In this document: one piece after another, positions 20,244 through 41,936 of the stretch
How positions within the stretch are numbered: the first letter of the stretch is position 1
Layout: the number at the start of each line of letters is the position of its first letter
Assembly (NCBI GenBank): GCA_016176785.1
Contig: JACOWN010000005.1
Location: 1,202-65,201, forward strand
Origin: Parcubacteria group bacterium
GTDB taxonomy: Bacteria > Patescibacteriota > Minisyncoccia > Phycocordibacterales > UBA2135
Direction of reading: 5' to 3'
DNA: 64,000 nucleotides
Made by a program: the position numbers and the translations under genes
Notes under the pieces: model-generated
The model's input: the letters and a program-made list of their open reading frames with translations, nothing else
Databases searched by the model: none
Told to the model about the DNA's origin: nothing

Positions 20244-20521
20244 CGTTGCCGACCGGCGACTACCGGATGTCCTTGATCGGGACGGCGGGAAAAAGCGACT
20301 GCATTTTTTGGATAATACCTGATTTTTTTATGAACACCTCGCTTTTCGCGGGGATGTTTTTTGACAAAAAAAAGACGCCTCCGCGGAAGGCGATATCTTT
20401 TTTCGAAAGAGCAATACCCGTTTCTTCTTTAAGGCACGCGGCGCACGCAACGAGAAGCGCGTCATCGGGCGGCGCGATGTTCCTGAACTTTAAAAGATAC
20501 TGCGAAATGTTTTGGAACACG

Positions 20522-23254: not shown

Positions 23255-23299
23255 GTTGGTGTGATGAATGAAAAATTTTTAGCGAGCGTCTCCGGCGAG

Positions 23300-23420
23300 A
23301 ATGCATTTCCTTTTATCCAATTATATAGCACGTTCCACGCGATGAAACTTGTTAAAAGTGCAATAGTATGTTGATAATCTGTTTATAAACTGTGGACAGT
23401 GTTCATACGCGCATCCAGTT
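23300..23420. promoter_or_regulatory. dnaA upstream region with DnaA-box-like 9-mers
   Basis: TTATCCAAT, TGTtGATAA and TGTGGAcAG-type matches read in 23305-23400. Divergent from rpmH. Confidence 0.35.
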
Positions 23421-23461
23421 CCGTTTTGACTTTGCCTGATTTTGTTATACACTCAATACTA

Positions 23462-23596
23462 ATGTCAAAAACATACCAACCAAAACGCAAGAAAAGAAAA
23501 CGCACCCACGGTTTTCTTATCCGTATGCAGAAAAGCGGCGGGCGAAGAACGGTCCTGAGACGGCGGCGGAAGAGGCGCGCCCGTTTATCCGTTTAA
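23462..23596 (+). CDS. rpmH: 50S ribosomal protein L34
   Basis: [44 protein letters not shown] matches the canonical L34 pattern. The track ORF starts upstream at 23399. Confidence 0.9.
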
Positions 23597-23612
23597 GCGG
23601 GTCCTCCTCCCT

Positions 23613-23987
23613 GTGCTTTCTCGAAAACACAAGGTGCCGCGCGGCGTTTTCCCGAAAGTTCTGCGTTCGGGACGCACGAAACACGGCACATACGTAACGC
23701 TGAGGGTCTCTTCCGCCGCCTCATGCAAGGGCCAACCGGCCGCGGTGTCGTTCGTGGTGCCGAAATCGGTTGCGCGAACCGCCGTCCAAAGAAATCGCCT
23801 CAAGAGGCGCGGATACGCCGCAGTTCTGAAAATCCTCCCCCGCCTTGCGCCGTGCCTTTCCTGCGTTTTCTTTTTCAAAAAAGGCGTTCCGGAGCCGCCG
23901 TATCGCGCGCTTGAAGGCGACCTGGAGGCGCTCTTGAAAGACGCCGGGGGTTTTCTCGCCGAAAAACGCCATGCAGAAAATATTTGA
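23613..23987 (+). CDS. rnpA: RNase P protein component
   Basis: Basic ~120 aa protein with the RNR motif (RNRLKRR) and conserved rpmH-rnpA-yidD-yidC synteny. Confidence 0.82.
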   Translation: MLSRKHKVPRGVFPKVLRSGRTKHGTYVTLRVSSAASCKGQPAAVSFVVPKSVARTAVQRNRLKRRGYAAVLKILPRLAPCLSCVFFFKKGVPEPPYRALEGDLEALLKDAGGFLAEKRHAENI

Positions 23988-24201
23988 AACGTGCATACGG
24001 GCGTACCAAATGGCGCTTTCACCTGATACCGGTTTTCTTTTTGGGCGGAGGAACCGGCAGGCGTGCCCTTTCTATCCATCGTGCTCGGAATACGCGGTTC
24101 TGGCGATGAAAAAGCACGGAATTTGGAGCGGAGCGGCAAGGGCTTTATGGCGTATTATGCGATGCCACCCGTGGCGGCAGCCGGCGGTTGATAAACCGTA
24201 G
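23971..24201 (+). CDS. yidD: Membrane protein insertion efficiency factor YidD
   Basis: CPFYPSCSEYA signature. 76 aa. Overlaps the rnpA end as usual. Confidence 0.85.
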   Translation: MQKIFETCIRAYQMALSPDTGFLFGRRNRQACPFYPSCSEYAVLAMKKHGIWSGAARALWRIMRCHPWRQPAVDKP

Positions 24202-24238
24202 GTTTGCGGAACGCGCCTCCGCGGCTTACAATACAAAA

Positions 24239-24997
24239 ATGATAAGCAGTGCGTTTAACGCCGTTTTGTACCAGCCGTTGTATAACGGTCTTGTTTTTTT
24301 GACGTCGATCGTGCCGTTCGGCGACGTGGGAATCGCCATTATCGTTTTGACGCTCATTGTTAAGTTCGCCATTTCTCCTCTCACCCACAAATCAACGAAA
24401 ACGCAGGTGCGCTTGCGTTCTCTTGAGCCGGAAATAGAGCGCGTGAAAGCGGAGCACAAAGACGACAAACAGAAGCAGTCGGAGCGTGTTATGGAATTGT
24501 ATCGCCAGCACGGCGTCAACCCCTTCTCCGGTTGCCTTTTGTTCATCATTCAACTCCCCATCCTTATCGCTTTGTACTGGACGTTTTGGAAGGGGCTTGC
24601 GAACGGCGGCTTTGACTCGTCCGTTCTGTATTCTTTCGTCAGCGCGCCCGATACGGTGAACATGAACTTTTTGGGCCTCATTGACATGTCGGGGAAAAGC
24701 GTCGTGCTCGCGTTGCTCGCCGGACTTTCCCAATATGTCCAGGTGAAGCTCTCCTCTCCGCTTCCGTCTGCCGCCCCGCGGACGGGCGGCCCCCTCTCGC
24801 TTAAGGAAGAGTTCGCGCGAAGCATGCAGATCCAGATGCGTTACGGCTTGCCGATTTTTGTCGCCGTTATCTCGTACACCATCTCGGCGGCGGTGGCGTT
24901 GTATTGGACGACCTCAAACCTGTTCACCATCATCCACGAATTCATCGTGCGCTATCGCGCCGAGCAGATCACAAAATCTCCGCCGAAGGAGGACTGA
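24239..24997 (+). CDS. yidC: YidC/Oxa1-family membrane insertase (short form, no large periplasmic domain)
   Basis: Five-TM core, conserved PLxxKS motif (ISPLTHKST), LQxxxxxxxP hairpin region, C-terminal basic tail. Start at MISSAFN inside the track ORF from 24188. Confidence 0.82.
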   Translation: MISSAFNAVLYQPLYNGLVFLTSIVPFGDVGIAIIVLTLIVKFAISPLTHKSTKTQVRLRSLEPEIERVKAEHKDDKQKQSERVMELYRQHGVNPFSGCLLFIIQLPILIALYWTFWKGLANGGFDSSVLYSFVSAPDTVNMNFLGLIDMSGKSVVLALLAGLSQYVQVKLSSPLPSAAPRTGGPLSLKEEFARSMQIQMRYGLPIFVAVISYTISAAVALYWTTSNLFTIIHEFIVRYRAEQITKSPPKED

Positions 24998-25639: not shown

Positions 25640-26881
25640 CTAGCGTTCGGGGATTTTTAAGCTCCACAACGTGCCGTCGCGTTTGTTCGTGAAGAAGAAA
25701 TATGTTCCATCCGGGTCAAGAAAAGGATTCGTGACGTCAACGGTCGCGCCGCCGAACTCGCGCGGAACGGCAAGCAGCGCCGCTTCGCCGGTCTCCGCGT
25801 CAATTTTCCATATAACGTCGTCAAAAAACATCGCTCCTTGGTACCACTCGTCGGGGAATGCTCCGTCCGGCACAACCCCGGGCGCTCCGCACAGGAGCGT
25901 AGACGAATTGCCGCCGCGCCAGACGCATTTCTCCGGCAGTGTAATGACGGGAAAGGGCTCCGACGTCGCCTCTTTGCGGCGGAAAAGGAAGGTTTCCAAA
26001 GTCCGTCCCGCGCTTGAGGAGTAGAGCACCGCGTCTCCTTTCGGCGCGGAAAGAGTCAAAAGTCCGGAAACCGGCCCGAGTATTTTCTCCGTCCTGCCGG
26101 TCTGCGGATTTAAAAAATAGAGGATTCCTCGGAAGCCGCTTGCCGCTTTGGTGGTGAGGGCTACCGCATCCTTATTGACCCACTGCGTCGTCCATTCGCG
26201 GACCGGCATGTCAAACACCTGACGCGGCCGCGCGCCGTCAAACCGCGTAACGGTTCCAAGCGCCGATATCCCGAACTCGGTAACGGAGAAAAGCGCGTCC
26301 GCATCCGGCTGTGCCGCAAGGGAGGTAATGCCGTCGGCGAGAAACACTCCGTCAAGTTTGCCGAGTTGCTGCGCCGCGGGCTCCGCGGCGACGATCTGCG
26401 CGGAAAAGCTCTTGATCACGTCGTTCGCATCCAAATAACGAGCGACGAACCGCGCGCCGCCGCTTTGCCACACGGTTTCATAAATGCCGGGCAACGTCGT
26501 ATTCGTAACGCGCACGCGTTCGTTCGTTTCAAGATTGACATCAAACACGTTCCCCGAAGCGCGGTCAACGTAGCGCGCATACAGCGCCTTGTTTCGGGTA
26601 ACCGTTGTTGCGCCGGCTATGGGCGCGCGCGTCAGCTGGCGAAGCTCCGGTACCTCCCCGTCCCCGAGCGCGGTCTCATCCGCCGCGGTTCCTTCTTCCG
26701 CCCCCCCCAACGGACGCCCGAACGAAACATCCTGCGGTGGCGCGCCGAACGGCAGGAAATCGCGGAGCGTTTCAACCGTCGTCTTTCCCGTGTCGCGCGA
26801 AATGTAATATGCCGCGCCGAAAAGCCCTGCGGCAAGCGCCACTATGGTGAAGGTGATTATGGCGATGGTTTTTCGGGTCAT
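25640..26881 (-). CDS. Secreted beta-propeller-like hypothetical protein (N-terminal TM anchor)
   Basis: Start at MTRKTIAIITFTIVALAAGLF (codon 26879-26881). Repetitive beta-rich sequence reminiscent of TolB/PD40 propeller. Last gene of the minus-strand T4SS-like block. Confidence 0.4.
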   Translation of the reverse strand: MTRKTIAIITFTIVALAAGLFGAAYYISRDTGKTTVETLRDFLPFGAPPQDVSFGRPLGGAEEGTAADETALGDGEVPELRQLTRAPIAGATTVTRNKALYARYVDRASGNVFDVNLETNERVRVTNTTLPGIYETVWQSGGARFVARYLDANDVIKSFSAQIVAAEPAAQQLGKLDGVFLADGITSLAAQPDADALFSVTEFGISALGTVTRFDGARPRQVFDMPVREWTTQWVNKDAVALTTKAASGFRGILYFLNPQTGRTEKILGPVSGLLTLSAPKGDAVLYSSSAGRTLETFLFRRKEATSEPFPVITLPEKCVWRGGNSSTLLCGAPGVVPDGAFPDEWYQGAMFFDDVIWKIDAETGEAALLAVPREFGGATVDVTNPFLDPDGTYFFFTNKRDGTLWSLKIPER

Positions 26882-26924
26882 ATTTTTGCGTCGGGTAAAA
26901 AGTCCGCGGCAGCGCAGTGCCACG

Positions 26925-27806
26925 CTATCTGGTTTGCAGAGGGATTTCGCACGCCGTTCGTCCGCCCGTGGCCGATGTGATTGCTCCTCCCTTTTTTGCG
27001 CACTGGTCCTCAAAAGATTTTAGGATTTTTGATTGAAGCGCACGCCGATCCGCCGCCGACGCGTTCTTATATTCCGGGGTTGCATAAAACAGGTTTACAT
27101 CAAGCACCCCGTCTACGCTTGTTCTGCGCACCTGTGCCAAACGGTTCTCCGAGGCATTTGGCGCGGTCACTGTTTTTTGCAGAAGAAGATCGGATTGTGT
27201 GGGTACAAGAACCAACTCTTGAAGCGTGATTTTCGGTACAACGATGCCGAGGTTCAGAAGATTCGGATTGACGGTGTTCAAAATAAGCCACGAGCCAAAA
27301 GCAAGCAAAAGCCCCCAGACGGCCGCCTGCATACGGTTCACGGCGGCCTTTTTCGTGTCAAACGCTTCGCTCAAAAGATATTCGGTGCCGCCCCAGACGA
27401 TCATCAAGACCGCAAGAATCCCTGCGGCGCCGATGACGAACTGAAATATGCGTCCCAAATATATTCCGAATGACGCATCCCCCGTCGCAACCTCTCCTAT
27501 GTCGCCGATCGGGGCAAGAAGCTTATAGCTTTTGCCGAAATCGCCGAACTCATCACTGCCGATCACCCGCGTTCCGCCCGAAGTCGGCTGACCGACATTT
27601 ACCGCGCCCCCAGTGCCTTGGACGGGCGGGGTAACGTCGATCGGGTCACCAAACTCATCAACTCTCTCCGTCCGCGTGTCTGTCGGGTCTCCAAATTCGT
27701 CCACCGCGCCCGTTTGCGCGTAAGCAAAAGGCATCGCGCCTCCAAGCGCCGCGAACATTACTGCGGCAGTCAACCCGTATGCGAAAATGTTTTTGAGCGA
27801 TGCCAT
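26925..27806 (-). CDS. Candidate pilin-like membrane protein with signal peptide, three DEFGD repeats and two TM helices
   Basis: Signal peptide MASLKNIFAYGLTAAVMFAALGGAMPFAYAQ. Repeats VDEFGDPTD / VDEFGDPID / SDEFGDFG. Hydrophobic pair IFQFVIGAAGILAVLMIVWGG and AAVWGLLLAFGSWLILNTVNPNLL, an arrangement like VirB2/TrbC pilins. The assignment is an inference. Confidence 0.4.
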   Translation of the reverse strand: MASLKNIFAYGLTAAVMFAALGGAMPFAYAQTGAVDEFGDPTDTRTERVDEFGDPIDVTPPVQGTGGAVNVGQPTSGGTRVIGSDEFGDFGKSYKLLAPIGDIGEVATGDASFGIYLGRIFQFVIGAAGILAVLMIVWGGTEYLLSEAFDTKKAAVNRMQAAVWGLLLAFGSWLILNTVNPNLLNLGIVVPKITLQELVLVPTQSDLLLQKTVTAPNASENRLAQVRRTSVDGVLDVNLFYATPEYKNASAADRRALQSKILKSFEDQCAKKGGAITSATGGRTACEIPLQTR

Positions 27807-27819
27807 GAGCGCGAGAGCG

Positions 27820-28818
27820 TTAGAGCGACGGCGATTGTCCGAATGTTATGAAAAGCGATGCGGCGGCGCGCTGGAAAATGCGCGCGGCATTCGTGATGCT
27901 GACCCCGACGCGTGCGGAGCCGCTTGTCCCGCCTTCGCTCCGGAACACGACCTCGGTGTCTTTTTGGGGCGGCAGAAAGGGTTCGTCATTCAATTCCCAC
28001 GAGTATTGGAGACCGTTCGCGCGGTCATCGCGCGAAAAATAATACGGCTCCACGCGCACCGTGAGCTCGTTTTCAGCAAGCGGTTCCGTGCCGCCAAGCG
28101 AGCGTTCGTAGAGCACTCCCAACAGAGGGTGACGGCGGTAGAGAAGCACGCGCGGCTCAACCGCGGCAAGCCGTATCGTCCGTTGTGCCGTAAAGGTCCC
28201 CTGGAGCGATGATGCTTTCACGGTGATCTCCGCGTCAAAGAATCGTTCGGGGCCGTCAAGCGCGAGCGTTTGCTTGCCGAAGCCGGAATCACCCCCAAGC
28301 ACGCGGCGGTTTTTTGACCAGGTGTAAATGACATCGTTGTCGCGTACGCGCGTTCCGTCGGCAAGAACGAAGTGCGGAAAAGCGGTAATGACGAGAGCGC
28401 TCCCCGACGACGGCAGCGCTTTTCCGCGGTAGAACGGCGGCGTGTACGTGTCCGCTTCCCACAGAAGGTCAACGTCGGCGGGACGGAGCGTAATCTCGCC
28501 CACGACCCTCCTCCCCTCGGGCGAGGTCGCGGTTGCGCTTATGCGGAGAGAACTTCCGAACGCGCCCGTGGTAACCGTGAGCGTTTTTATTCCGCGTCCT
28601 TCAGCCGCGCGCCGTCCGCCGACCGTCCAGGAGACGGTGGAACGGTTCAGGTCAACCGAGGACGTATCAAGCGTAAGCTTCACTTCGGTGCGCGCGCCGG
28701 GGAACTCGGGCGTCGCCGTAACGGTGAGAACGCCGATGTTCGGAACTTGCGCGTGAACCGTGGCGTAAAACGCGAGCGCGAATGCGGCGATGCATGTTTT
28801 GGCGAAGAACGACATCAT
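27820..28818 (-). CDS. Secreted hypothetical protein (T4SS-like locus)
   Basis: Signal peptide MMSFFAKTCIAAFALAFYATVHAQ. Beta-rich. 4-nt overlap with the VirB4 gene end. Confidence 0.4.
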   Translation of the reverse strand: MMSFFAKTCIAAFALAFYATVHAQVPNIGVLTVTATPEFPGARTEVKLTLDTSSVDLNRSTVSWTVGGRRAAEGRGIKTLTVTTGAFGSSLRISATATSPEGRRVVGEITLRPADVDLLWEADTYTPPFYRGKALPSSGSALVITAFPHFVLADGTRVRDNDVIYTWSKNRRVLGGDSGFGKQTLALDGPERFFDAEITVKASSLQGTFTAQRTIRLAAVEPRVLLYRRHPLLGVLYERSLGGTEPLAENELTVRVEPYYFSRDDRANGLQYSWELNDEPFLPPQKDTEVVFRSEGGTSGSARVGVSITNAARIFQRAAASLFITFGQSPSL

Positions 28819-30677
28819 AGGGGAACGCCCGCTTTCACCTTAAACGCCTGCCGCGCTTTTTTAATGGCGAGCAGTTCGGACGGGTCCGAAGTAATGATCT
28901 GGTCTTCAGTGTACGACGCAATGACCTTGAGAGCGACGTGTTTCAGTCCGGCAAAAAAGATCCCCTCGCCCACATCCGATTCAAGAAGGAGATATTTTTC
29001 CTCATCCGTCAGGTTAAAGGTCCGTTGCACCTCGTCGATCACCGACGGCGCTTGCTTCAAAAGAAGCTGGATCGCCGAGTTAGAGATGATTGCGCCGCCG
29101 TACGGCGATTTCAAAAAGTCATTGACATCCTGCGTGATGGTCGCGAGGCCCAGAAAGTACTTCCTGCCGCGCTTCGCCAAACTGAAAAGAAATGAAGCGG
29201 TATCTTCTTGTTTCATCATCCACCACGCCTCATCGATGACCATAAGGCGTTTTTTAAGCTCCTTCCGAACCGCATTCCAGATGAAATGCGTCACGATGTA
29301 CATGGCGACCGGCTTCAGCTCATCCTCCATGTCGCGCACCGAAAAGACGACGAATCGCTTGTTTATATCAACGTTCGTCGGACGGTTGATGAAACCCGAC
29401 CACGTTCCTTTCGTGAATTTCGCAAGACGCTGCGACAGCGACGCGCCGCCTTCCATACCCGCAAGCACGAGTTCAAAATCGGACATGAGCGGCGGCTCGT
29501 TTTTTGAAAAATCGGAGTCGGGAGTGATGTCTTTCAAAGCGTATGTCTCTGTGATGGCGTGGTCAACGAGCGAATCCTCCTCCGGCGTCAGCCCTCCGAG
29601 CATGATGCGGAACAAGCCGACGAGATTGACGATGTTTGACCGAAGCACGTCGGCGGGCGATTCGTCCTCGCGCACCGGCGGCAGGTCAAACGGGTTGATG
29701 TGGTGCTCGGACGTGAGTGAAATGTTGAAATAGCGCCCGCCGGTCGCCTCCGCGAGATACTCGTACTCTTTTTCGGGGTCAATCACGATGACGTCTATGT
29801 CAAACATAAGCGACCGCAGGATCTCAAGTTTCGCGGCGTACGATTTTCCGGCGCCGGACGTTGCGAACATGATGGAGTTGTAGTTCTCCATCGCAAAACG
29901 GTCAAAAAGGATCAAGCTGGAATTATGTCGGTTGATGCCGTAGAGGATGCCGCGGTCCGAGGTAAGGTCAAACGACACGAACGGAAAGAAGCTTGAAAGC
30001 GGCTCGGAATTGAGTTTTGAATGGATGTTCAAGCGGTCGTCGGCGATCGGAAGCACGGAGTGATATCCCGCCTCCTGCTGGAAGAGCGCGGGGCGGACAT
30101 AGACGAGTTTTGATTCAAGCAGCGAGCGTATTTCTTGCTCAATTTTATCAAGCTCGCGTTCGTTGTCCGCGTAAAGCGTCATATAAAAACCGACGTCAAA
30201 AAGTTTTTCCTGCGCTTGCTGGAGTTTGTCGCGGAGATCTTCAAGGTCGCGGTACGCCGTGTCAAGCTTCGGGTCGCGCACGAGCCCCCGCTCTTCGCGG
30301 ATGGCGATCTGGCTCTCAACCTCGGCGACTTTTTTCTGGAACTGCCTTAAAACCTTCGCCGTATCAATGGGGTGCACGAAGAGAGAAACGTCAAACACCT
30401 TATCAAGGTTGATGATCGGCGACAGCCAGTTGTCGGAAAGATAACGCGGATAGGAGATGGCGAAGAATGTGCGCGCGACTTTTTCGCCGACGTAAAATTG
30501 TTTCTGTTCTATTTTGAGCGCCGCCGGCGCGATGATATCGCGCAATTCCAAAACGCCCGCTTCGTAGATCTCTTGCGGCAGAATAGGCGATATTTCTTGT
30601 TTTTCTTTCGGCCCTTTGCCGAGCAATTTATCAAGTATGTTCATACGAAACGATTGATAGTGAACGGTCGGCGGCAT
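28815..30677 (-). CDS. VirB4/TrbE/CagE-family type IV secretion ATPase (C-terminal ATPase portion)
   Basis: Walker A MFATSGAGKSYAAK, Walker B RLMVIDEAWWMM, conserved motifs TQDVNDF and GxGIFF of VirB4 family. 620 aa. Confidence 0.85.
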   Translation of the reverse strand: MPPTVHYQSFRMNILDKLLGKGPKEKQEISPILPQEIYEAGVLELRDIIAPAALKIEQKQFYVGEKVARTFFAISYPRYLSDNWLSPIINLDKVFDVSLFVHPIDTAKVLRQFQKKVAEVESQIAIREERGLVRDPKLDTAYRDLEDLRDKLQQAQEKLFDVGFYMTLYADNERELDKIEQEIRSLLESKLVYVRPALFQQEAGYHSVLPIADDRLNIHSKLNSEPLSSFFPFVSFDLTSDRGILYGINRHNSSLILFDRFAMENYNSIMFATSGAGKSYAAKLEILRSLMFDIDVIVIDPEKEYEYLAEATGGRYFNISLTSEHHINPFDLPPVREDESPADVLRSNIVNLVGLFRIMLGGLTPEEDSLVDHAITETYALKDITPDSDFSKNEPPLMSDFELVLAGMEGGASLSQRLAKFTKGTWSGFINRPTNVDINKRFVVFSVRDMEDELKPVAMYIVTHFIWNAVRKELKKRLMVIDEAWWMMKQEDTASFLFSLAKRGRKYFLGLATITQDVNDFLKSPYGGAIISNSAIQLLLKQAPSVIDEVQRTFNLTDEEKYLLLESDVGEGIFFAGLKHVALKVIASYTEDQIITSDPSELLAIKKARQAFKVKAGVPL

Positions 30678-30695
30678 ACGCCCCGCGCGTTCGGC

Positions 30696-31352
30696 TTATA
30701 AAGCGTTCCTTCTCGTTTCCGGCGGGATCGGTTTTTCCAATTCGCCCGGATTGAATATCTTGAAGAAAAGTTCCACCAATTCTTCCGTTCCGAGACGCGC
30801 AACGCGGATGCCGGCGGACGCAAGCCCTTGTTCCACCACGGAGGCGCGCTGTTCAAGCTGCGTCCTGTTTTCTTCAAACGATTCAATGCGTTCGGCAACG
30901 TTGGCGTCCCGCCCCCCTTTTTTTCCCAAAAGACCCGCAAACACACCGGCGCGTTCGACGCCTAAGATAGGCGGCGAATACGGCACCACGACAAAAAAGG
31001 CTTTTGTCATGATATTGGTGCTTTCGGTGAATTTTTTGACGAAATCAACGTATTCGGAAACCTGAATGCGCATCAAGTCGGACGTCTGCGCTTTTTCGCG
31101 TTCCTCAAGAAGTGACAAGTACGGCCTGATATCAAGCTTGCGTGATTGAATGAAAAACTGCACAGAAAAATCAAGCGAGTTCAGGAAGTTTTGAAATTGG
31201 AGCAAGATCGCTTCTTGTTCGGCGGCCGACTTGAGCGCAAGGTTGTGCGACGAAGTCATAAGAGCCAGCCGCAGCGAGCCGTCTTTCAAGACAACAACGC
31301 CGTTGCGTATTTCTCGGATGGGAACGAAGTCCTGCGTTGATTTTGAAACCAT
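30696..31352 (-). CDS. VirB4 N-terminal domain encoded as a separate ORF (same frame as downstream ATPase ORF)
   Basis: FVPIREIRNGVVVLKDGSLRLALMTSSHNLALKSAAEQEAILLQFQNFLNSLDFSVQFF matches the conserved start of VirB4/TrbE proteins. 218 + 620 aa equals full VirB4 size. Confidence 0.6.
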   Translation of the reverse strand: MVSKSTQDFVPIREIRNGVVVLKDGSLRLALMTSSHNLALKSAAEQEAILLQFQNFLNSLDFSVQFFIQSRKLDIRPYLSLLEEREKAQTSDLMRIQVSEYVDFVKKFTESTNIMTKAFFVVVPYSPPILGVERAGVFAGLLGKKGGRDANVAERIESFEENRTQLEQRASVVEQGLASAGIRVARLGTEELVELFFKIFNPGELEKPIPPETRRNAL

Positions 31353-31422
31353 GCGAATTTTGAATTATGAAACGGGAATTACGAATTAAGAATACAGCGA
31401 CCGCCGCCACGCACCACGACCC

Positions 31423-31857
31423 TTACTTCTTGCTTTCCGGTCCTTGCTTTTGTCCTGCATAGATGCTTTCGTGGACGTCCAAACTCCACGCAATGTCTTT
31501 CAGCTTGCTTTCCGAAAGGCGCGGGACGAAAAAATCGCTTGCGGGCGCCGCCTCCTTTCCCCGCTCTTCCGGCAAGCGCTCCCGTTTCTGCCATAGATAC
31601 AGTTTATCACGAGTGAGGAAACGCACCGCCGCCTCAAGGATATGGATAAAGTTCCGGTCGTTCACTTTGTAAAAAGCAAGCGCAAGAGAGAGCGCGACGA
31701 CGGGAGCGATCAGGAAGATCGCGAGGTAGAGCGGCAGCGCCCGGTAGAAGATGAAGGAAAACCCCGCGCCGCCGGCAAGATAAATAAACTGCTTCAGGGT
31801 CAGCGGCCCGAAGATCTTGTCCTCAACTTCTATGAATTGCGGTGTCTGAAATCTCAT
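31423..31857 (-). CDS. PrgI/VirB3-like small membrane protein
   Basis: 144 aa. N-terminus MRFQTPQFIEVEDKIFGPLTLKQFIYL followed by two TM helices, as in PrgI-family proteins that precede VirB4 in Gram-positive-type T4SS. Confidence 0.5.
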   Translation of the reverse strand: MRFQTPQFIEVEDKIFGPLTLKQFIYLAGGAGFSFIFYRALPLYLAIFLIAPVVALSLALAFYKVNDRNFIHILEAAVRFLTRDKLYLWQKRERLPEERGKEAAPASDFFVPRLSESKLKDIAWSLDVHESIYAGQKQGPESKK

Positions 31858-31895
31858 GCGAAATCTCCAAAAAATTTTGGAGATTTCGTATGAGA
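31852..31895. repeat. Palindromic hairpin CGAAATCTCCAAAA-aa-TTTTGGAGATTTCG (extended TCTCATG...TATGAGA) overlapping the PrgI-like start codon
   Basis: Read directly. 14-bp perfect stem at 31859-31888. Confidence 0.6.
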
Positions 31896-31916
31896 TTTAG
31901 AGTCATGAGTCATGAA

Positions 31917-32297
31917 TTAAGAATGCGTTTTTGATTTTTTGATAAGGCCGTTTATGAGTTTGCTTGCCGTAATGCTTTTCCGGGCGAGAATTTGAAATTC
32001 TTCGTTTGAAATATATTTTAAGTCTCTCGCAAGTATGAGTTGATTTTGTGTTTCGGTGAGCGACCCCAGTGACATACTATAGAAATATACCTTTTCCTTA
32101 TACGAGCCTCTACTGAATCCCTCCGCAATATTTGATGTAATGGATATGGTAGCGCGCCTGAGTTGTAAAGTAAGCGCAAACTGTTCTTCTTTGGGAAACG
32201 ACCTCGTCGTTTTGTATATGGAAAGCGCCAGTATATGGCTCGCTTTCCACGCGTCAAGGTCGGTGAAGGATTTTATTTTTCTTGATTCTTGATTCAT
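31917..32297 (-). CDS. Four-helix-bundle protein (TIGR02436 / '23S rRNA intervening-sequence protein' family)
   Basis: KSFTDLDAWKASHILALSIYKTT..FPKEEQFALTLQLRRATISITSNIAEGFSRGSYKEKVYFYSMSLGSLTETQNQLILARDLKYI is the hallmark pattern of this family. Gene is ~40% GC versus ~60% for its neighbours. Confidence 0.8.
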   Translation of the reverse strand: MNQESRKIKSFTDLDAWKASHILALSIYKTTRSFPKEEQFALTLQLRRATISITSNIAEGFSRGSYKEKVYFYSMSLGSLTETQNQLILARDLKYISNEEFQILARKSITASKLINGLIKKSKTHS

Positions 32298-32311
32298 ACT
32301 TCTTAATTCAT

Positions 32312-32354
32312 CGTGAACCGATAGAGTGGCTGGGAACTACTCTATCGGTTCACG
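32312..32354. repeat. Perfect 16-bp inverted repeat CGTGAACCGATAGAGT / ACTCTATCGGTTCACG (11-nt loop)
   Basis: Read directly between the four-helix-bundle gene start and the end of the acidic ORF. Confidence 0.6.
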
Positions 32355-33086
32355 GTATGGGTCCGGTTCTTTGTACGCGGTCGGCGTCGCCTCCGGCGCC
32401 TCCGTTTCCCGAATTATTTCTTCGCCGAACTCGCTTTTCGTCGGCGGAAGGCGGAATGTTTTTTGCAGTTTCTCCGAAACGATGTCCCGCGGCTTTTCCT
32501 CGGGCGTTTCCCCGCGCGGCGCAAGCGGCGTGCCTATTTTGTCGGGCTCCTCTATGTCGCGAAGCGTTTCTTCGCGGCTTATTTCCTCATCCGCCGTGTG
32601 TTGCGGATATTCTTTCTCAAACTCCGGTGCCTCGTCATCTTCGGTCTCAACCGGCAGCGTATCCGGCGTCTCGCCTCCTTTGGCGAAGGCGGACGTTCCC
32701 TGCGGCGGCGTTTCCGGAACTTCTTTTTCCCGCTCTTTGATCCCCGTCTCCACGGTTCTGGCGCCCTCAATGCCGTGGACCGTCTTAAGCGACTCTCTGA
32801 TCGGTCGGAAAATCTGCTCATTGACGTCCTGCGCGATGGCGCGCGCCGCATCCGCCTCAACGCCAAGTTCCCGCGTGAGCGTCCTCACGTAATCGCGCGG
32901 GTGAACGAGTCCCAGCATCACCCCGCCGGTAGCGTCAAAAAGTTTTTCCTGCACATCAAGATGCAGGCGGTGTTTTGCGCCGATCGCCTGCAGCTGCTCC
33001 GCGACCTCCACCGAAGATATCGCGGTGCGCACATCCTCGGGGATATTTTCATATTGTTTTTTTAGTTTTTCAAATAGAAACTCCAT
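32337..33086 (-). CDS. Hypothetical protein, conserved N-terminal ~110 aa plus highly acidic Glu/Pro/Thr-rich tail
   Basis: No motif recognised. Located between the VirB6-like and PrgI-like genes. Confidence 0.35.
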   Translation of the reverse strand: MEFLFEKLKKQYENIPEDVRTAISSVEVAEQLQAIGAKHRLHLDVQEKLFDATGGVMLGLVHPRDYVRTLTRELGVEADAARAIAQDVNEQIFRPIRESLKTVHGIEGARTVETGIKEREKEVPETPPQGTSAFAKGGETPDTLPVETEDDEAPEFEKEYPQHTADEEISREETLRDIEEPDKIGTPLAPRGETPEEKPRDIVSEKLQKTFRLPPTKSEFGEEIIRETEAPEATPTAYKEPDPYREPIE

Positions 33087-33091
33087 ATGCG

Positions 33092-35062
33092 TTAGGTATT
33101 ACTTTGTTTTGTAAAACGACTAATATTTCTTGCGATATCGTCAAGTTTTTGTTGTGCCTTGCTTTGTTTTGTTTGCAGTTCATTAACCCGGCTTTCCTCC
33201 GCCGTGGTAAGTTCGCCACGACGCCTTCTTTGCCCTTGGAGGCGGCTCATCTCGTTTTTAATATCTTGCATATCTTTTTTAGCGCCTTCTTCCTGTTTTT
33301 TCCAGTGCGCAAGCTGCAAAGTTCCGGACGCTCGTTTGTCTTTGCGCGCGATTTTGGTGAATAGGGTGTCAATGGACGGCGTCTCAATAGTTCGCGCGTA
33401 TCCGAGCTGGCGTGATGTTTGGAGGCGTGCGATTTCTTGTTCTTTGGCACGGATTTGCCCCTCGATAATTTTTGCTCTCTGTGTCGCTTGCAGTCGAGCG
33501 TCATCCGTACCTATCGCGCTTCGCGCGATCGCTTTTTGTGTTTCCAAACTTTCTCGATCTTCCGCAATCTGTTCTTGTACCCTTCGTATTTCTTCTTGAG
33601 GCACTCCCAAACTCTTTCCAAATTGTTCTCGCGCGGCAGTCTGCCTTTCAAGTTGCGCTTCGTAGCCGCCCTTGCCGCGCACTTTGCCGAGGCCTATACC
33701 GAGCTTGGCTGCGCCCTTGGTAACCGGCGCAACGCCTCGGATATCGTAACTTCCTCCCGCAACGCCGCGCGTTGCCTTGAGGGCGAGCGCGCCGGTCCTG
33801 CTTTTCGCCGCCCAGTCGCGGAAGCCCTCGGTTGAAGCGATCTTTGAAGCGGCGCGGCCGAGCGTTTGCCGCAACGCGAAGCCCGCTCCTCCGGCGGCTA
33901 TCGTCCCTCCGGCAAAGCCCGCCACCGCATTGCCGTACTCTATCGCCGTCTTTCCGAAATCACCGCTTAAGTTCTTCACCGCCTTCAGCCCGTAGAGAAG
34001 GATGAAAATGATGACTATGAAATTGAAAATCCCCGTGACGTCAAGAATGTCTTTTTGCGCGATGCGCGTAAGCAGCTGGCCGTTTTGGATGATCAGGATC
34101 GCGATATAGAGCACGAAAAGATAAAGCGGCGCGACGAAAATTTGATTCGTAAGCGTTGAAAGCCAGGCGTCAAAATGTTTTTTCGTTGACGGCAGGATGG
34201 CGAGAAGGAACGCAAGCGGCGCGAGAACGGCAAGAAAAATGAATGCAACGAAACGGCCAATCAAAAGCAGAGCGCCGGTGAAAAACGTCCACGCCGTCAC
34301 GAAGTAAAGCGTCGCCAAACTGACGAGAATGACGGACATTTTGCCCGGCGTGAGCCCGGAAACCGTTTTTGTCGGGTCGTAATTTTGAAGAAGACCGAGG
34401 CCGTTTAATATCTCGCTTGATATCGTGCCGCCCGCGCTTGAGAACGCATCGTAAAACTGAAGCGCAATGATGTTTGACGCGTCAATCCCGACCTTGACGA
34501 AGAACAAGCTGAAGTTGATGAGGAGCGCGACGATAATGAGCCGCGCGAGGAGCGTTTTCATGCCGTACTTTTCTATCTGGAGAATGGTCGCGATGGCGAT
34601 GACAAGCAGGATGAAGATGAAAAAAAGATTCGCAAAATCGCGCGTTACGGTCCAGCCGACGGTGATCGCGTCCACCCGCTCAAGGGCGTTGCTTCTGATG
34701 GTGAACTCAATGACGTGGTCAAGCAAAAGGCCCGTGCCTGTCATGAGGGCGTTCGCGATGTTTACGACGGTGACGAGGACCCAGTTGAGGCCTCCCACGA
34801 CAAAGTCGCCGACGGTTTGCGGGAAAAAGTAGGCAAATCCGGCGGTCGCAAAAATTGAAGCGGCTCCGAATACGAACGCCGGCAGCATAAAGGCAACGGC
34901 GTATGCGGAATGGGCCGGGAGCAAAAAGCCGGCGAGAATGACAAGCGCCACGGACAAAGCGGTTCGCCGGGAACATTTCGGATACTGACGCGCGCAGAGC
35001 CGCCCGAGCCGCGCGAAGCGGTTCCGTACATATACGTAAAGTTTTTGGGATACCATTCGCAT
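33092..35062 (-). CDS. VirB6/TrbL-like polytopic membrane protein with C-terminal coiled-coil
   Basis: About 8-10 predicted TM helices over 400 aa, Gly-rich linker, long charged coiled-coil tail. This architecture and its position next to VirB4 are typical of VirB6-like proteins. Start at MRMVSQ (35062), which avoids overlap with the upstream gene. Confidence 0.55.
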   Translation of the reverse strand: MRMVSQKLYVYVRNRFARLGRLCARQYPKCSRRTALSVALVILAGFLLPAHSAYAVAFMLPAFVFGAASIFATAGFAYFFPQTVGDFVVGGLNWVLVTVVNIANALMTGTGLLLDHVIEFTIRSNALERVDAITVGWTVTRDFANLFFIFILLVIAIATILQIEKYGMKTLLARLIIVALLINFSLFFVKVGIDASNIIALQFYDAFSSAGGTISSEILNGLGLLQNYDPTKTVSGLTPGKMSVILVSLATLYFVTAWTFFTGALLLIGRFVAFIFLAVLAPLAFLLAILPSTKKHFDAWLSTLTNQIFVAPLYLFVLYIAILIIQNGQLLTRIAQKDILDVTGIFNFIVIIFILLYGLKAVKNLSGDFGKTAIEYGNAVAGFAGGTIAAGGAGFALRQTLGRAASKIASTEGFRDWAAKSRTGALALKATRGVAGGSYDIRGVAPVTKGAAKLGIGLGKVRGKGGYEAQLERQTAAREQFGKSLGVPQEEIRRVQEQIAEDRESLETQKAIARSAIGTDDARLQATQRAKIIEGQIRAKEQEIARLQTSRQLGYARTIETPSIDTLFTKIARKDKRASGTLQLAHWKKQEEGAKKDMQDIKNEMSRLQGQRRRRGELTTAEESRVNELQTKQSKAQQKLDDIARNISRFTKQSNT

Positions 35063-35064
35063 GG

Positions 35065-36615
35065 TTAATCGTTCGGCGTACCCCCGCCGAGGGTTAAGGG
35101 AAAGACGCGGCATTCCTCTATTTTTTGCTGCGTTGCGCCGCGAAGTTCCGTCATCGCGTCATCGGTGTCGGACGCGCTGACGCGGGCGCTTATGACATCC
35201 GCCTCACTGTGAAGCGTTTCGGTTTCAAGGAGTCCGCGATAATCCTCCGCAATGGCGCTCATGGTGGAGACGGTCTGCGCGCTCTCGGCGCGGATGCGGA
35301 ATGCCGCAAGCGCCGCCGACAGTTCGTTTGAGGAAACGATGGCGCTCTGGAGCGTATCCTTCCGCGGCGCGATGTCCGTTGCGAGGGTCGTTGACGCGGC
35401 CGCAATGCGGCTCCGTGCCGTTTGCGCGTCGTCAAGCGTGAGAGGAACGGTCTGCGTACGCGTCAGTTTGTCCGTATAACACGCAATGAGTTCGTTCACT
35501 TTCGTTTCGGCGCCGAGGACGCTCCGCAGGGCGGCTTCCTTGGCGGCGCGGTAATCACCTTCGGCGGCGCTGCGGCGCGCGAGTTCGTCAAGAAGTTCCC
35601 GCCTGACACCCGGCAGCGTTTCTGCGTTTATGTCCGTCCCCAAGCGGTCGGTATATGACGGCTGTCCGCCGCTCCGGTCGGAAAGGCCGAGCAATCCGAC
35701 TCCTCCGAATATCTGCTGCGTCAGCTGCACGATGAGCGCCTGCACGATCTCGTTGAATGAATCCGCAAGCTCTAACTGGCGCACCGTGCTCCCAAACTGG
35801 TTTGCAAGCACGTCCTCAATAAGAACCCCGGGCGACTTGATGGAGCAGTTCTCAACCTCCGCCGTTTGTCCGGTTGCTTCCTCCATGACCGTATCCTTCG
35901 TGCAGTGCCTAAATGCTATGAAGCCGCTTGCCCAATTCGCTTCTTGTTCCGCACGCTTCTCCGCATTCCGTAACTGACGCTCCCGCTCGTCCACCGCAAG
36001 CAGGTATTGGCCGTAGATATTGTTTTCCGGCTGGAGCGTCACATTGATCCATGCCTCCCACCCCACTCGGTGCACGTACAGCTCAAGGTCTCGGAAGTTC
36101 CGGACAACGCCCGAAAGCGTGCATTGGAATCGGTATCGTTGCGGAACGGGTTTCCGGAGGAGAAAGCGGAACGGTTCAAGCGAGTAGGAGCACAGGTTCG
36201 TGAGGCCTAACTTTTCAATAAAAGCGCCCGATACCTGGTCAAGCACGTCCGCAAAAAATTGTTCAGGGTCGGTTATGAAGCCCGGGTTCCCCTCAAAGCC
36301 GTTGTTGATCCAATTGACGATGTCAGCCGTCATTTGCTGAATAACCATTTTTGCGATCGCCCACGCAAGCGGATTGAGGACGTTTTTCATGAACTGGTCC
36401 GCCGAATCAAGCGCCGCGCTCGTCGTATTGGCGGCGGCGCTTATCCTTTCCGGAATCGTTCCGGGTCCGTCGATGACGATGACGGCATTGCCGCCTGCCC
36501 CGCCGAGACCGAACAAGGCCGCAAATGTTTTCTGCGGCGCGATCGCAAACACCGCGGGCATAACCAAAGCGCCCATCAGTATCCCCGTTATGAGTTTTTT
36601 ATGAAGAGGCGTCAT
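35065..36615 (-). CDS. Secreted hypothetical protein (signal peptide + TM anchor, 516 aa)
   Basis: MTPLHKKLITGILMGALVMPAVFAIAPQKTFA signal peptide. No catalytic motif recognised. Confidence 0.4.
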   Translation of the reverse strand: MTPLHKKLITGILMGALVMPAVFAIAPQKTFAALFGLGGAGGNAVIVIDGPGTIPERISAAANTTSAALDSADQFMKNVLNPLAWAIAKMVIQQMTADIVNWINNGFEGNPGFITDPEQFFADVLDQVSGAFIEKLGLTNLCSYSLEPFRFLLRKPVPQRYRFQCTLSGVVRNFRDLELYVHRVGWEAWINVTLQPENNIYGQYLLAVDERERQLRNAEKRAEQEANWASGFIAFRHCTKDTVMEEATGQTAEVENCSIKSPGVLIEDVLANQFGSTVRQLELADSFNEIVQALIVQLTQQIFGGVGLLGLSDRSGGQPSYTDRLGTDINAETLPGVRRELLDELARRSAAEGDYRAAKEAALRSVLGAETKVNELIACYTDKLTRTQTVPLTLDDAQTARSRIAAASTTLATDIAPRKDTLQSAIVSSNELSAALAAFRIRAESAQTVSTMSAIAEDYRGLLETETLHSEADVISARVSASDTDDAMTELRGATQQKIEECRVFPLTLGGGTPND

Positions 36616-36623
36616 ACGGTTTT

Positions 36624-37601
36624 CTACGGCACGAGACGCGCAAAAACGCTCCCCGCCTCGTTTGCGCTGAAGGCAATACCGTGCGCCGTCTTAAAATACG
36701 CTTTCAGGTTTTTGAGCGCGGTGTACAGCGAATCGGCGCTTTTTTGGTAAACACCGAGGTGCACCAGCGCAGAAAGAGGGTCTTCGTAGACCGCCTTCAT
36801 GGCGCGGATGTTTTCCGAGAGCGCGTTGAAACTTGAAAGAAGAGCCGTGTGGAGCGCGCGCGCGTCATTCGGCACGGAGAGCCCCCGCGCGTCCGCGAAC
36901 ATGTTGTCGTATGCGGCGATGATCGGTTCAAGTTTTTCCAATTCTTTCTTGTCTTCGTTGGAAAGGGCGCGGAGGAGAATGACCGCTTCGTTCTCGTTCG
37001 TCACGGAATTGGCGATAATGACTCCGCCGAGCGCATTGCCGTACGCCCGAACCGTTTCCTCGGTTGCGGGGACGATATTTTTGATGTCTTCCTCGGAAAA
37101 ACTCTTGTCGGCGATGTCAACGTACGCCTTTTGAGCGATTGTGTTCACAAAATCCGCTTCCGTAACCGCGTTGAACGAATCCGACTGTTTCAAGGCGAGG
37201 TAACCGGTGATGACATCGCGCGCGAGTTCCCCCGTTGCCGTGCGCGGCGCCTGCTCCTCATTTGTTCGCGGCGCGATTTTTGTCGCGGTGCGGCGGTCGT
37301 CGGGTCCCGCGACGGTCGGATCGCGGCCTTCGCGCACCTCCGCGCCGTCCGGCGTCCCGTCGCCGTCAGTGTCGGGATTTTTGGGGTCTGTTTTCCAAAG
37401 AATTTCCTCCCAATCGCGGAGGCCGTCGCCGTCTTCATCGCGGATAAGAAGGTCCGCCGCATTTTTCGGCGCGCTTGCCGTCGCAAGCGTAGTTGATTGC
37501 TCAAACCCCGCCTTGTTTTTGAGCGAGTTCACAACAAAAACCCCTCCTATGACAAGGACGCCAAAAATAACCGCAAAAACAGTTTTGCTTCGGAAATTCA
37601 C
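36624..37601 (-). CDS. Membrane-anchored protein with two thrombospondin-type-3-like Ca-binding repeats
   Basis: N-terminal TM. DEDGDGLRDWEE and DTDGDGTPDGAEV (DxDxDG) repeats. First gene of the minus-strand block. Confidence 0.4.
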   Translation of the reverse strand: MNFRSKTVFAVIFGVLVIGGVFVVNSLKNKAGFEQSTTLATASAPKNAADLLIRDEDGDGLRDWEEILWKTDPKNPDTDGDGTPDGAEVREGRDPTVAGPDDRRTATKIAPRTNEEQAPRTATGELARDVITGYLALKQSDSFNAVTEADFVNTIAQKAYVDIADKSFSEEDIKNIVPATEETVRAYGNALGGVIIANSVTNENEAVILLRALSNEDKKELEKLEPIIAAYDNMFADARGLSVPNDARALHTALLSSFNALSENIRAMKAVYEDPLSALVHLGVYQKSADSLYTALKNLKAYFKTAHGIAFSANEAGSVFARLVP

Positions 37602-37664: not shown

Positions 37665-37705
37665 TGGATAAGAAAAACCCCGCGAGAGACGGGGGTTCCC
37701 GCGGG
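37665..37705 (-). terminator. Rho-independent terminator after ksgA
   Basis: AACCCCGCG...CGCGGGGTT hairpin followed by a T-run on the minus strand. Confidence 0.55.
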
Positions 37706-37727: not shown

Positions 37728-38540
37728 TTACGTTGAAGAAAAAGGTCGGGCAAGAACCCGCGCCAGTCGTTTCCAGTCCTCAAGCGACAAATCCTCGGCT
37801 CGCGCGTCCGGAGAGACACCCGCTTTTTTAAAGAGAGGACCGTCTGCGCCTTTGTTTCTAAGGTTATTTGAGAGTTTTTTGCGCGGGTGAGCGAAGCCGG
37901 CGCGCACGACGGAAAAAAACGCGTCCTCGGAGATGTCTTCAAAAAAGTCCCTCGAGATGCCCGCGATAGTGAGTATCGCCGAATCAACTTTTGGCGCCGG
38001 CACGAAAGAGCCGGCTTTTACGGTTTTTACGTATTTCGGCGCGCCGTACGCTTTAACGGATATTGAAAGAAGGGATTCCTTGCCGTTTTTTGCAATAATG
38101 CGCTCGGCAACTTCTTTTTGCACGATGACCGCGATCATGCGCGGTTTCGGGTCTATGGAAAGGAAGCGGCGGAGAAACGCGCCGGTGATGTAGTAGGGAA
38201 TACTGCCGATGAGTTTGTAGTGAGTAGTTTGCAGGGAGTGGTTTTTTGGTTCAAATTGGAGAATGTCGGCGGGGACGACGACGAGTTTTTGAGCGGCGGT
38301 TTCTGCGGCGAGCGCATGTGTAAGTTCGGCGGCGAGGGTCTCGTCTTTTTCTACGGCAATAACGCGCTCCGCGCGCTCAAGAAGTATTTTTGTGATCATC
38401 CCCCTTCCCGGGCCGACCTCAACAACCGTATCTCCGCGCCCGACATCAGCCGCATCCGCGAGTTCGCGAGCGGTTGACTCGTTTTTTAAAAAGTTTTGCC
38501 CCAGAGATTTTTTTACCCCCGTTCTTACGTCATGGATCAT
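37728..38540 (-). CDS. rsmA: 16S rRNA (adenine1518/1519-N6)-dimethyltransferase
   Basis: SLGQNFL SAM-binding start, VVEVGPGRGMIT, and the FxPxPKVDSA C-terminal motif of KsgA. Confidence 0.9.
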   Translation of the reverse strand: MIHDVRTGVKKSLGQNFLKNESTARELADAADVGRGDTVVEVGPGRGMITKILLERAERVIAVEKDETLAAELTHALAAETAAQKLVVVPADILQFEPKNHSLQTTHYKLIGSIPYYITGAFLRRFLSIDPKPRMIAVIVQKEVAERIIAKNGKESLLSISVKAYGAPKYVKTVKAGSFVPAPKVDSAILTIAGISRDFFEDISEDAFFSVVRAGFAHPRKKLSNNLRNKGADGPLFKKAGVSPDARAEDLSLEDWKRLARVLARPFSST

Positions 38541-40907: not shown

Positions 40908-41936
40908 ATGTTTTTTTATTTCCTGCGGCGGAAAGCGATTACCCTGATCGTTGCGCTTTCCATTGAGGCCAGCATGCCGGTCGCATTCATGCCCGCCGGC
41001 TTTTTCTCGTTTTTAGGGAACTTGTTTGAAAGGGCGGGATCGTCGGCGGTGACCGTTTCCAATTCGCAGAACATGGCGCTCCTCCAGGCGGCGCTTAACT
41101 TTGACCCCAACCCCTCAAAGGGCGGCGGCGACATCACCATTGTTGGCGATTCCGCCCTTCTGCCCGACAGCGGCCCCTTAGGCACGATCGCGGACGTTGA
41201 AGAGCAGGCGCCCGGTTCAGACCAGATCAGTTTATATGTCGTGCGCGAAGGCGACTCATTGTCCCAGATCGCAAAAATGTTCGGTGTTTCCGTGAACACC
41301 ATCATGTGGGCGAACGACATTAACCGCGGCGACCTCATCCATGCGGGACAAGTGCTCGTTATCCTTCCCATATCCGGCGTCCGTTATACGGTTCTCAAGG
41401 GAGACACGTTGGAAATTATTGCCAAAAAATTCAAAGGAGACGTTGATGAAATAAAAAGATTTAACGATATTGCAAACGCATCGGAGCTTACTGTGGGGCG
41501 GACGATCATTATTCCTGCGGGAGAGGTCGCAAACAGGTCATATACCGCGCAGGGGTATCTGCCCGTCAGCGGCGCAAACGGACCCTCGTACGTCGGCTAC
41601 TACTTGCGTCCCGTCCCCGGCCCCAAGACGCAAGGCCTCCACGGGTATAACGGCGTTGATTTTGCCGCCGCATACGGAACGCCCGTGGCCGCCGCCGCCG
41701 AAGGAGCCGTCATCGTAAGCAGACCGGAAGGTTGGAACGGAGGGTACGGGCAATATGTTGTGGTGAGCCATCCCAATGGAACGCAAACGCTCTACGCGCA
41801 CTTGGGAGCCGTCGCCGTTTCCGCGGGTTCATATGTCGCGCGCGGGCAGACCATTGGCTATTCCGGTTCAACGGGAAAATCAACCGGCCCCCATCTCCAC
41901 TTTGAAGTTCGCGGCGCGCAGAACCCTTTTCAATAA
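40908..41936 (+). CDS. LysM-domain M23-family peptidoglycan endopeptidase
   Basis: Two LysM repeats (YVVREGDSLSQIAKMFGVSVNTIMWAN and YTVLKGDTLEIIAKKF). M23 zinc motifs HGYNGVDF and GSTGKSTGPHLHFEV. Confidence 0.85.
   Translation: MFFYFLRRKAITLIVALSIEASMPVAFMPAGFFSFLGNLFERAGSSAVTVSNSQNMALLQAALNFDPNPSKGGGDITIVGDSALLPDSGPLGTIADVEEQAPGSDQISLYVVREGDSLSQIAKMFGVSVNTIMWANDINRGDLIHAGQVLVILPISGVRYTVLKGDTLEIIAKKFKGDVDEIKRFNDIANASELTVGRTIIIPAGEVANRSYTAQGYLPVSGANGPSYVGYYLRPVPGPKTQGLHGYNGVDFAAAYGTPVAAAAEGAVIVSRPEGWNGGYGQYVVVSHPNGTQTLYAHLGAVAVSAGSYVARGQTIGYSGSTGKSTGPHLHFEVRGAQNPFQ

Follow-up and report, generated by a model that had tools for sequence, protein, structure and literature searches.

A very probable Patescibacteria-type type IV secretion system encoded in a Parcubacteria group genome

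Type IV secretion systems (T4SS) of Patescibacteria were described between 2023 and 2025. According to Quinonero-Coronel et al. (2025, Microb Genom, PMC12102498), their VirB4 proteins form a clade nested in MPF-FATA, the systems comprise TrsD, PrgI, VirB6 and PF18895 pilins without a relaxase, and they are located near dnaA and ksgA. In Southlakia epibionticum ML1, the corresponding cluster (SEML1_0006-0019) was found by transposon sequencing (Tn-seq) to be essential during growth on the host (Wang et al. 2023, Cell, PMC10633639). In this study, a stretch of 64,000 nucleotides from a Parcubacteria group bacterium (contig JACOWN010000005.1, positions 1,202 to 65,201; termed the window) was analysed. 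It harbors eleven tightly packed, co-directional open reading frames (ORFs) at 25640-37601 on the minus strand, separated by spacers of -4 to 70 nt; those listed in an initial annotation of the same DNA are all present as delimited there. In all likelihood, this block is a chromosomal, origin-proximal T4SS typical of Patescibacteria, with the layout of the class Paceibacteria. It is an intact copy of an already described kind of system, several accessory proteins of which are uncharacterised. With a best VirB4 identity of 82% to a GTDB species representative and a GC content of approximately 54%, it represents a new species-level instance.

Translocon genes and their conservation

Relatives were obtained by scanning the VirB4 protein against one genome per GTDB species, which yielded at least 573 relatives, the best 80 loci of which were analysed; the counts given below refer to these loci. 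The VirB4 ATPase, the motor of the system, is encoded at 28815..30644 (minus strand). The complete ORF (28815-30677) matched the NCBIfam model conju_CD1110 with 376.8 bits (cut-off 325) over profile positions 185-733 of 752, and the Pfam models P-loop_TraG and AAA_10 with 90.9 and 43.4 bits, respectively. The Walker A (ATSGAGKS) and Walker B (LMVIDE) motifs are both intact. The nearest solved structure is the C-terminal domain of the Thermoanaerobacter VirB4 (4AG5, E 1.8e-41), followed by TrwK of R388. The frame is open from 30677, while the related proteins begin at the methionine of MNILDKLL (30644), and their alignment with the window ORF sets in at residue 12; judged from this alignment, the gene probably starts with the ATG at 30644. 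The preceding gene (30696..31352, minus strand) encodes a TrsD-like protein of 218 amino acids, the equivalent of the N-terminal domain of full-length VirB4 on a gene of its own. Its product matched positions 2-116 of conju_CD1110 and 102-233 of VirB4_plasma, and scored 26.9 bits with the TrsD model NF041427, below the cut-off. According to PMC12102498, TrsD-like proteins are the commonest T4SS component beside virB4 in Patescibacteria.

Two genes upstream of virB4, a small PrgI/VirB3-like membrane protein is encoded (31423..31857, minus strand; PF12666, 43.4 bits, cut-off 27). It contains a hydrophobic hairpin at residues 25 to 62, approximately, and was present in 76 of the 80 loci with 40-62% identity. 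An extended VirB6/TrbL-like polytopic membrane protein is encoded at 33092..35062 (minus strand; alternative start at 35113). Residues 186-374 of the longer ORF (33092-35113) matched PF04610 (TrbL) marginally, with 27.6 bits (cut-off 25.9). The protein has many hydrophobic segments and a hydrophilic coiled-coil tail of about 280 amino acids at its C-terminus, for which a profile search against the PDB gave generic coiled-coil matches only. The assignments of VirB4, PrgI and VirB6/TrbL in the initial annotation are thus borne out by significant hidden Markov model (HMM) matches, above the cut-off in all three cases.

Synteny was determined by tblastn of all window proteins against the 80 loci, and gene order was judged on loci of at least 20 kb. 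Order and strand were identical in all 42 such loci (M23, uvrD, ksgA, E325, D516, virB6, C249, prgI, trsD, virB4, B332, pilin, A413, (jag), yidC, dnaA; the letter-number names denote accessory proteins described below). Since no related contig of this length departs from this order, the block is not a chance grouping, and the proposal that its genes are conserved together holds across dozens of related Patescibacteria genomes. All 80 loci are from metagenome-assembled genomes (MAGs) of Patescibacteria, labelled Paceibacteria, Parcubacteria, Taylor-, Zambryski- or Campbellbacteria. This agrees with the link to small-genome episymbionts drawn earlier, the closest VirB4 genes all belonging to Paceibacteria/Parcubacteria MAGs and the system having been described in PMC12102498 and PMC10633639.

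Identity to the window proteins was highest for VirB4 (74-82%), followed by DnaA (54-63%), UvrD (43-55%) and KsgA (38-52%), and amounted to approximately 20-48% for the exported accessory proteins. The higher conservation of VirB4 compared to DnaA, UvrD and KsgA in the same loci fits strong purifying selection, so that VirB4 appears to be under stronger constraint than DnaA. Taken together, the fixed synteny and these identities argue for vertical inheritance at one chromosomal site, with a strongly constrained motor and fast-evolving surface parts.

Pilin, accessory proteins and inserted cassette

The gene at 26925..27806 (minus strand) encodes a VirB2-like pilin with extensions (293 amino acids). 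It had been regarded as a candidate two-helix pilin with unusual DEFGD repeats. The three repeats are real (residues 36, 50 and 85), and PF18895 (T4SS_pilin) was matched by 42 of 51 positional orthologues (best E 4.7e-10); the window protein itself scored below the cut-off of 26.6 (25.3 bits, E 1.6e-5). The protein is composed of a signal peptide, the repeats, a two-helix core (residues 112 to 178, approximately) and a C-terminal domain of 110 amino acids with two cysteines. In the AlphaFold2 (AF2) model, a helical hairpin (112-144 and 148-178) was predicted with a confidence score (pLDDT) of about 70; the confidence was low elsewhere, and the model did not suffice for searching related folds. 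A terminator-like hairpin (26905-26924) is located directly 3' of the pilin stop codon, and another one (37678-37694) follows ksgA. Such an arrangement would fit a strongly expressed pilin, with transcription attenuated ahead of the final gene.

A C-terminal extension beyond the two-helix core was found in 39 of 42 positional orthologues (median 224 amino acids), and the type of domain varies by species. About half of the orthologues carry a long helical tail of 240-280 amino acids, while the small two-cysteine domain occurs in the window and three of the loci. Other tails resemble YkuD (E 6e-12), VanY (E 1.6e-9; PF02557 is also precomputed for one database protein) or, below the cut-off, CHAP/NlpC-P60 (E 7e-4). 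A LAS/M15-like tail with the motif GGTExWLH...HxPGxxVD...HWHV and sub-threshold similarity to Peptidase_M15 was present in at least seven loci and several database proteins; PDB profile searches gave no match for these LAS-like tails. Examples of pilin cores with such differing tails come from ten loci and five database proteins. The full-length window pilin has a single close database homologue (99% identical), and the other matches share the core only. Word-indexed homologue searches with the pilin and the 516-aa protein described below gave few matches (20, 6 and 5). No earlier report of hypervariable pilin C-terminal domains was found in the literature searched, which does not prove that there is none. 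Tentatively, the VirB2-like protein of Paceibacteria might be a modular, fast-evolving surface protein with a two-helix core, lineage-specific N-terminal repeats and interchangeable C-terminal "payload" domains, among them peptidoglycan enzymes, long coiled coils and small disulfide domains. If so, the host cell would be faced with wall-cutting or adhesive modules carried by the fibre or membrane stub itself.

Four further gene products had been described as secreted or anchored, and N-terminal hydrophobic or signal segments were indeed found in all of them. The first cluster gene (36624..37601, minus strand) encodes E325, a membrane-anchored exported protein of 325 amino acids with an N-terminal transmembrane (TM) helix. 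Calcium-binding TSP3 repeats at about residues 48-100 (Pfam TSP3_bac, 32.4 bits) are followed by a helical C-terminal domain, and a profile of 43 orthologues matched the calcium-binding region of a biofilm surface protein (7c7r, E 2e-5). E325 is found in 43 of the 80 loci at the same position. The neighbouring gene (35065..36615, minus strand) encodes D516, an exported protein of 516 amino acids with a signal or TM segment, which matched neither Pfam nor NCBIfam. It belongs to a large family; with its N-terminal 330 residues, 4,486 cluster representatives were retrieved at E≤1e-3 among 1.84 billion. The N-terminal domain is cysteine-rich and conserved (motif WINxGFxGxPxF; Cys141, 164, 237 and 256). 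In the AF2 model (pLDDT 73.8), this domain is poorly resolved, and a C-terminal long-helix bundle was placed at 320-503 with confidence. D516 may be a subunit of the T4SS associated with the envelope or the pilus; no earlier report on its family was found. If the modular nature of the pilin holds true, Paceibacteria would, together with this unannotated family, possess a surface architecture unlike that of any characterised T4SS.

B332 (27820..28818, minus strand) is a secreted, beta-rich protein of 332 amino acids with a cleavable-looking signal peptide ending in VHAQ. The start of its gene overlaps the virB4 stop codon (ATGA), and it was found directly after virB4 in 74 of the 80 loci. A profile of 60 sequences weakly matched the Ig-like Hoc protein (3shs, E 0.011), and B332 probably consists of three Ig-like domains. 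A413 (413 amino acids; 25640..26881, minus strand) is encoded by the last cluster gene and is anchored by an N-terminal TM segment (residues 6-24). It follows the pilin gene in 60 of the 80 loci. Weak, consistent matches of a 53-sequence profile to TolB propellers (E 0.002-0.05) point to a probable TolB-like beta-propeller as its ectodomain.

A conserved cytoplasmic protein, absent from the description in the initial annotation, is encoded at 32337..33086 (minus strand). This protein, C249, comprises 249 amino acids without a TM segment and was found between virB6 and prgI in 48 of the 80 loci. In an alignment of 45 sequences, a conserved N-terminal domain of about 95 amino acids is followed by an acidic disordered, variable middle part. 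A near-invariant DPYREP motif is located one to three residues before the stop codon in the window and 45 orthologues across Paceibacteria, and is reminiscent of a short peptide for interaction or recognition at the C-terminus. No family match was obtained for C249 in Pfam and NCBIfam, and the matches of the PDB profile search were insignificant or generic.

One of the eleven genes does not belong to the system, and ten of those proposed earlier as a T4SS block remain. The gene product of 31917..32297 (minus strand) is a 23S rRNA intervening-sequence protein (IVP), a four-helix bundle (PF05635, 120.3 bits), and its gene is a passenger inserted in the spacer between C249 and prgI. The GC content is 0.40 (approximately 0.55 nearby), with a value at third codon positions of 0.43 compared to 0.59-0.71 in the neighbouring genes. 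Start and stop of the gene each border on one arm of a perfect 12-nt inverted repeat (ATGAATTAAGAA; 32300-32311 and 31912-31923). IVP genes were found in just 12 of the 80 loci. Fifteen further IVP copies in the relatives have a GC content of 0.28-0.43, and the copies occupy at least four different operon spacers (C249/prgI, prgI/trsD, trsD/virB4 and elsewhere). Most of them are flanked by exact, low-complexity inverted repeats of 9-13 nt, an architecture as in rRNA intervening sequences. The IVP gene thus behaves like a small mobile cassette; no earlier report of such cassettes at varying operon spacers was found. It is flanked by two long hairpins in the window, which are perfect or nearly so. 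The 5' arm of the first one (32312-32354, 16-bp stem) is formed by the last codons and the stop codon of C249, and the 3' arm of the second one (31849-31898, 24-bp stem, 96% complementary) by the ribosome-binding site and ATG of prgI. On the transcript, the 24-bp stem would either cover the start of prgI or form a target for RNase III. Four relatives without the cassette likewise have strong terminator-like hairpins after C249.

The cluster is flanked by housekeeping genes, namely dnaN (20522-21619), dnaA (21878-23254), yidC (24188-24997) and jag/R3H on one side and ksgA (37728-38540), uvrD, a LysM-M23 peptidase gene and PolX on the other. A TATAAT hexamer is located about 14-19 nt upstream of the GTG start codon of the first cluster gene (36624-37601). 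The LysM and peptidase M23 cell-wall hydrolase (40908..41936, plus strand; Peptidase_M23 109 bits, LysM 93 bits) lies beyond ksgA-uvrD, and this position is kept in the 10 loci that extend that far. M23/LysM VirB1-like proteins are associated with virB4 in Paceibacteria, according to PMC12102498, and with low confidence the hydrolase may be considered a VirB1-type wall-opening enzyme. The remainder of the 64 kb also encodes housekeeping proteins (PolA, PBP1, TyrRS, RuvABC, PNPase, CCA-adding enzyme and a PilB-type ATPase), and four tRNAs were the only Rfam matches in the whole window. The PilB/GspE-type ATPase (11924-13606, plus strand; T2SSE 394 bits, MshEN domain), encoded 12 kb from the T4SS, suggests that the organism also has a type IV pilus or type II secretion-like machinery. 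The GC content is 0.42-0.48 at 20000-24000 and 56000-64000, compared to approximately 0.55-0.60 elsewhere. The former dip spans dnaN and dnaA (the origin region); the latter, with tRNA genes and small uncharacterised ORFs, is possibly of foreign origin. The GC maximum (0.646) is found at 10001-12000, where two ORFs (9951-11048 and 11117-11746) encode low-complexity sequences rich in proline, alanine and arginine without a family match; the gene calls in this region are doubtful.

Proposed function and rival explanations

As established T4SS biology would suggest, VirB4 hexamers and the TrsD-like N-terminal domain would be anchored via PrgI/VirB3, and VirB4, the TrsD-like protein, PrgI and VirB6 would together form a membrane translocon of the monoderm type. 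The pilin and the TSP3 (E325), D516, Ig-like (B332) and propeller (A413) proteins may build or decorate a surface fibre or stub contacting the host cell. Most likely, the machine would serve an epibiotic lifestyle by contact and by delivery or exchange of proteins or other molecules, not plasmid conjugation. A non-conjugative use such as host interaction had already been proposed from the lack of VirD4, relaxase and VirB11 genes in the block. Pfam scans of all sizeable ORFs detected no type IV coupling protein (T4CP), relaxase or VirB11 in the entire 64 kb, and there is no integrase beside the block. The epibiotic role is favoured over conjugation because a relaxase and a coupling protein are lacking nearby and the Southlakia cluster is essential on the host.

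Several points weigh against this interpretation. The function of the block is inferential throughout, and what the five accessory proteins do is guessed from faint similarities in fold. The VirB6 score is marginal, TrbL being matched individually by just 7 of 47 orthologues, and the pilin falls 1.3 bits short of the Pfam gathering cut-off, with a poor structure model (AF2 pLDDT 51). A VirB8-like (NTF2-like) component was not recognised in any cluster protein by HMM or profile searches; such a component is generally undetectable in Patescibacteria outside ABY1, according to PMC12102498. From the same source, VirD4-like proteins are encoded far from virB4 in most Patescibacteria, and a coupling protein may therefore be present elsewhere in the genome, beyond the 64 kb.

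The block is very unlikely to represent an integrated conjugative element, whether as its transfer module or as a relic in decay, with relaxase and coupling protein genes outside the window. Such an origin could account for the best VirB4 match, the CD1110 family of Gram-positive conjugative transposons, for PrgI, TrsD and VirB6 as conjugation-type components, and for a tyrosine recombinase gene at 52505-53422. The latter, however, lies at a distance of 15 kb amid housekeeping genes and resembles XerC/D. The same housekeeping neighbours (ksgA-uvrD and yidC-dnaA) in about 40 species indicate vertical inheritance at a fixed site, the cluster, apart from the IVP insert, does not differ from its flanks in GC content, and relaxases were found in just 103 of approximately 3,000 Patescibacteria genomes (PMC12102498). 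An origin from an integrated conjugative element or plasmid was rejected owing to the fixed synteny and the flank-like composition, the tests for relaxase, T4CP and mobile context having all failed. A system inactivated by a premature stop in VirB4 is extremely improbable, and so is a fusion protein produced by a UAA-suppressor tRNA decoding the TAA. The ORFs 30696-31352 and 28815-30677 do share one frame with a single TAA (30696-30698) between them, which is correct in the description of a "split VirB4" at 28815-31352 in the initial annotation. The split is ancestral, not damage: in each of 78 relatives, the trsD-like and virB4 genes form ORFs of their own, the frames differing in 60 of these, and in several an extra gene lies in between, in two cases an IVP gene. 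They also match distinct profile segments, a TrsD-like gene beside virB4 is a known arrangement, and both proteins are highly conserved (53-66% identity for the TrsD-like protein and 74-82% for VirB4). A suppressor seemed to be available, since ARAGORN labels 5186-5259 as tRNA-Stop with the anticodon tta. This candidate (plus strand) was rejected as well; by our own inspection, the cloverleaf is an ordinary tRNA-Lys(UUU) with the anticodon loop CUUUUAA, and the tta register requires an internal mismatch. Furthermore, more genes of the window end in TAA than in any other stop codon (22 of 40). With the split universal among relatives, both a pseudogene and TAA read-through were dismissed, and stop-codon recoding is absent here.

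A DNA-uptake or exchange apparatus like ComB of Helicobacter or the archaeal Ced system, feeding a nucleotide-poor cell, is less improbable than these two explanations, though still unlikely. Patescibacteria are unable to make nucleotides (PMC10633639), ABY1-class clusters co-localise with comF, recG and radA, and the lack of relaxase and T4CP would be in line with uptake. VirB4 also matched the CedB and CedD models, but only with 35 and 17 bits compared to cut-offs of 700 and 600. The cluster has no competence genes as neighbours. In Southlakia, competence requires ComEC and type IV pili; deletion of comEC ends transformation and leaves the cells viable, whereas the T4SS is essential (PMC12857230).

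Comparison with known systems

Nothing essential distinguishes the T4SS of the Patescibacteria clade catalogued in PMC12102498 from that of the window. Both have a separate, adjacent TrsD-like gene, PrgI/VirB3 and VirB6, lack a nearby relaxase or T4CP, and are located beside dnaA, dnaN, ksgA and yidC with an M23/LysM neighbour. The PF18895 pilins of the clade have a probable counterpart in the VirB2-like protein of the window, which scored just below the cut-off. The window VirB4 probably belongs to the MPF-FATA-derived clade as well, as its 74-82% identity to the Paceibacteria proteins and a best curated model of MPF-FATA type indirectly suggest. The accessory genes are left unannotated in that source, and neither C-terminal extensions of the pilin nor IVP inserts are reported in the parts consulted. 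The window therefore represents no new kind of system; it is a clean, complete Paceibacteria example with all gene boundaries checked. The unmodelled family of 4,486 clusters, the pilin with swappable domains, some of them peptidoglycan enzymes, and the DPYREP protein offer handles on host engagement, although these observations on accessory proteins are leads, not results.

The T4SS of Southlakia epibionticum ML1 (PMC10633639) is likewise chromosomal and origin-proximal. It shares the order VirB6-like ... PrgI, TrsD-like (293 amino acids there) and VirB4 (612 amino acids there), an exported protein encoded downstream, Ig-like there and probably so in the window, and the lack of a recognisable relaxase or coupling protein in the cluster; its PF18895 pilins would correspond to the VirB2-like protein of the window. 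In contrast to the window, it has six short pilin genes (approximately 100-185 amino acids) on the opposite strand, a separate lysozyme-like protein, accessory proteins of about 1,000 amino acids and an NTF2-like (VirB8-like) protein. The window encodes a single extended pilin of 293 amino acids, its accessory set is different, and a VirB8-like protein was not recognised. Among the systems compared, essentiality has been shown for Southlakia only; no type IV system before that of Patescibacteria had been shown to be indispensable to its owner.

The conjugative T4SS of MPF-FATA (CTn2/CD1110, pGO1 Trs, pCF10 Prg and Tn916) include the CD1110 family, whose cut-off the window VirB4 exceeds, and likewise have TrsD-, PrgI- and VirB6-like parts in a monoderm architecture without VirB7, VirB9 and VirB10. 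Unlike the window, they are borne on plasmids or integrated conjugative elements and possess a relaxase, a T4CP, a VirB8-like protein and a VirB1 hydrolase, but no VirB2 pilins. The window, lacking relaxase and T4CP, combines a pilin with a fixed chromosomal site. The predicted pilins of Paceibacteria have the signal peptide and the two-helix hydrophobic hairpin of approximately 70 residues in common with the VirB2/TrbC pilins (VirB2 of Agrobacterium, TraA of F), and a few of the orthologues also weakly matched PF04956 (TrbC). Whereas the classical pilins are 70-120 amino acids long without added domains, those of Paceibacteria carry a variable N-terminal segment and mostly a C-terminal extension.

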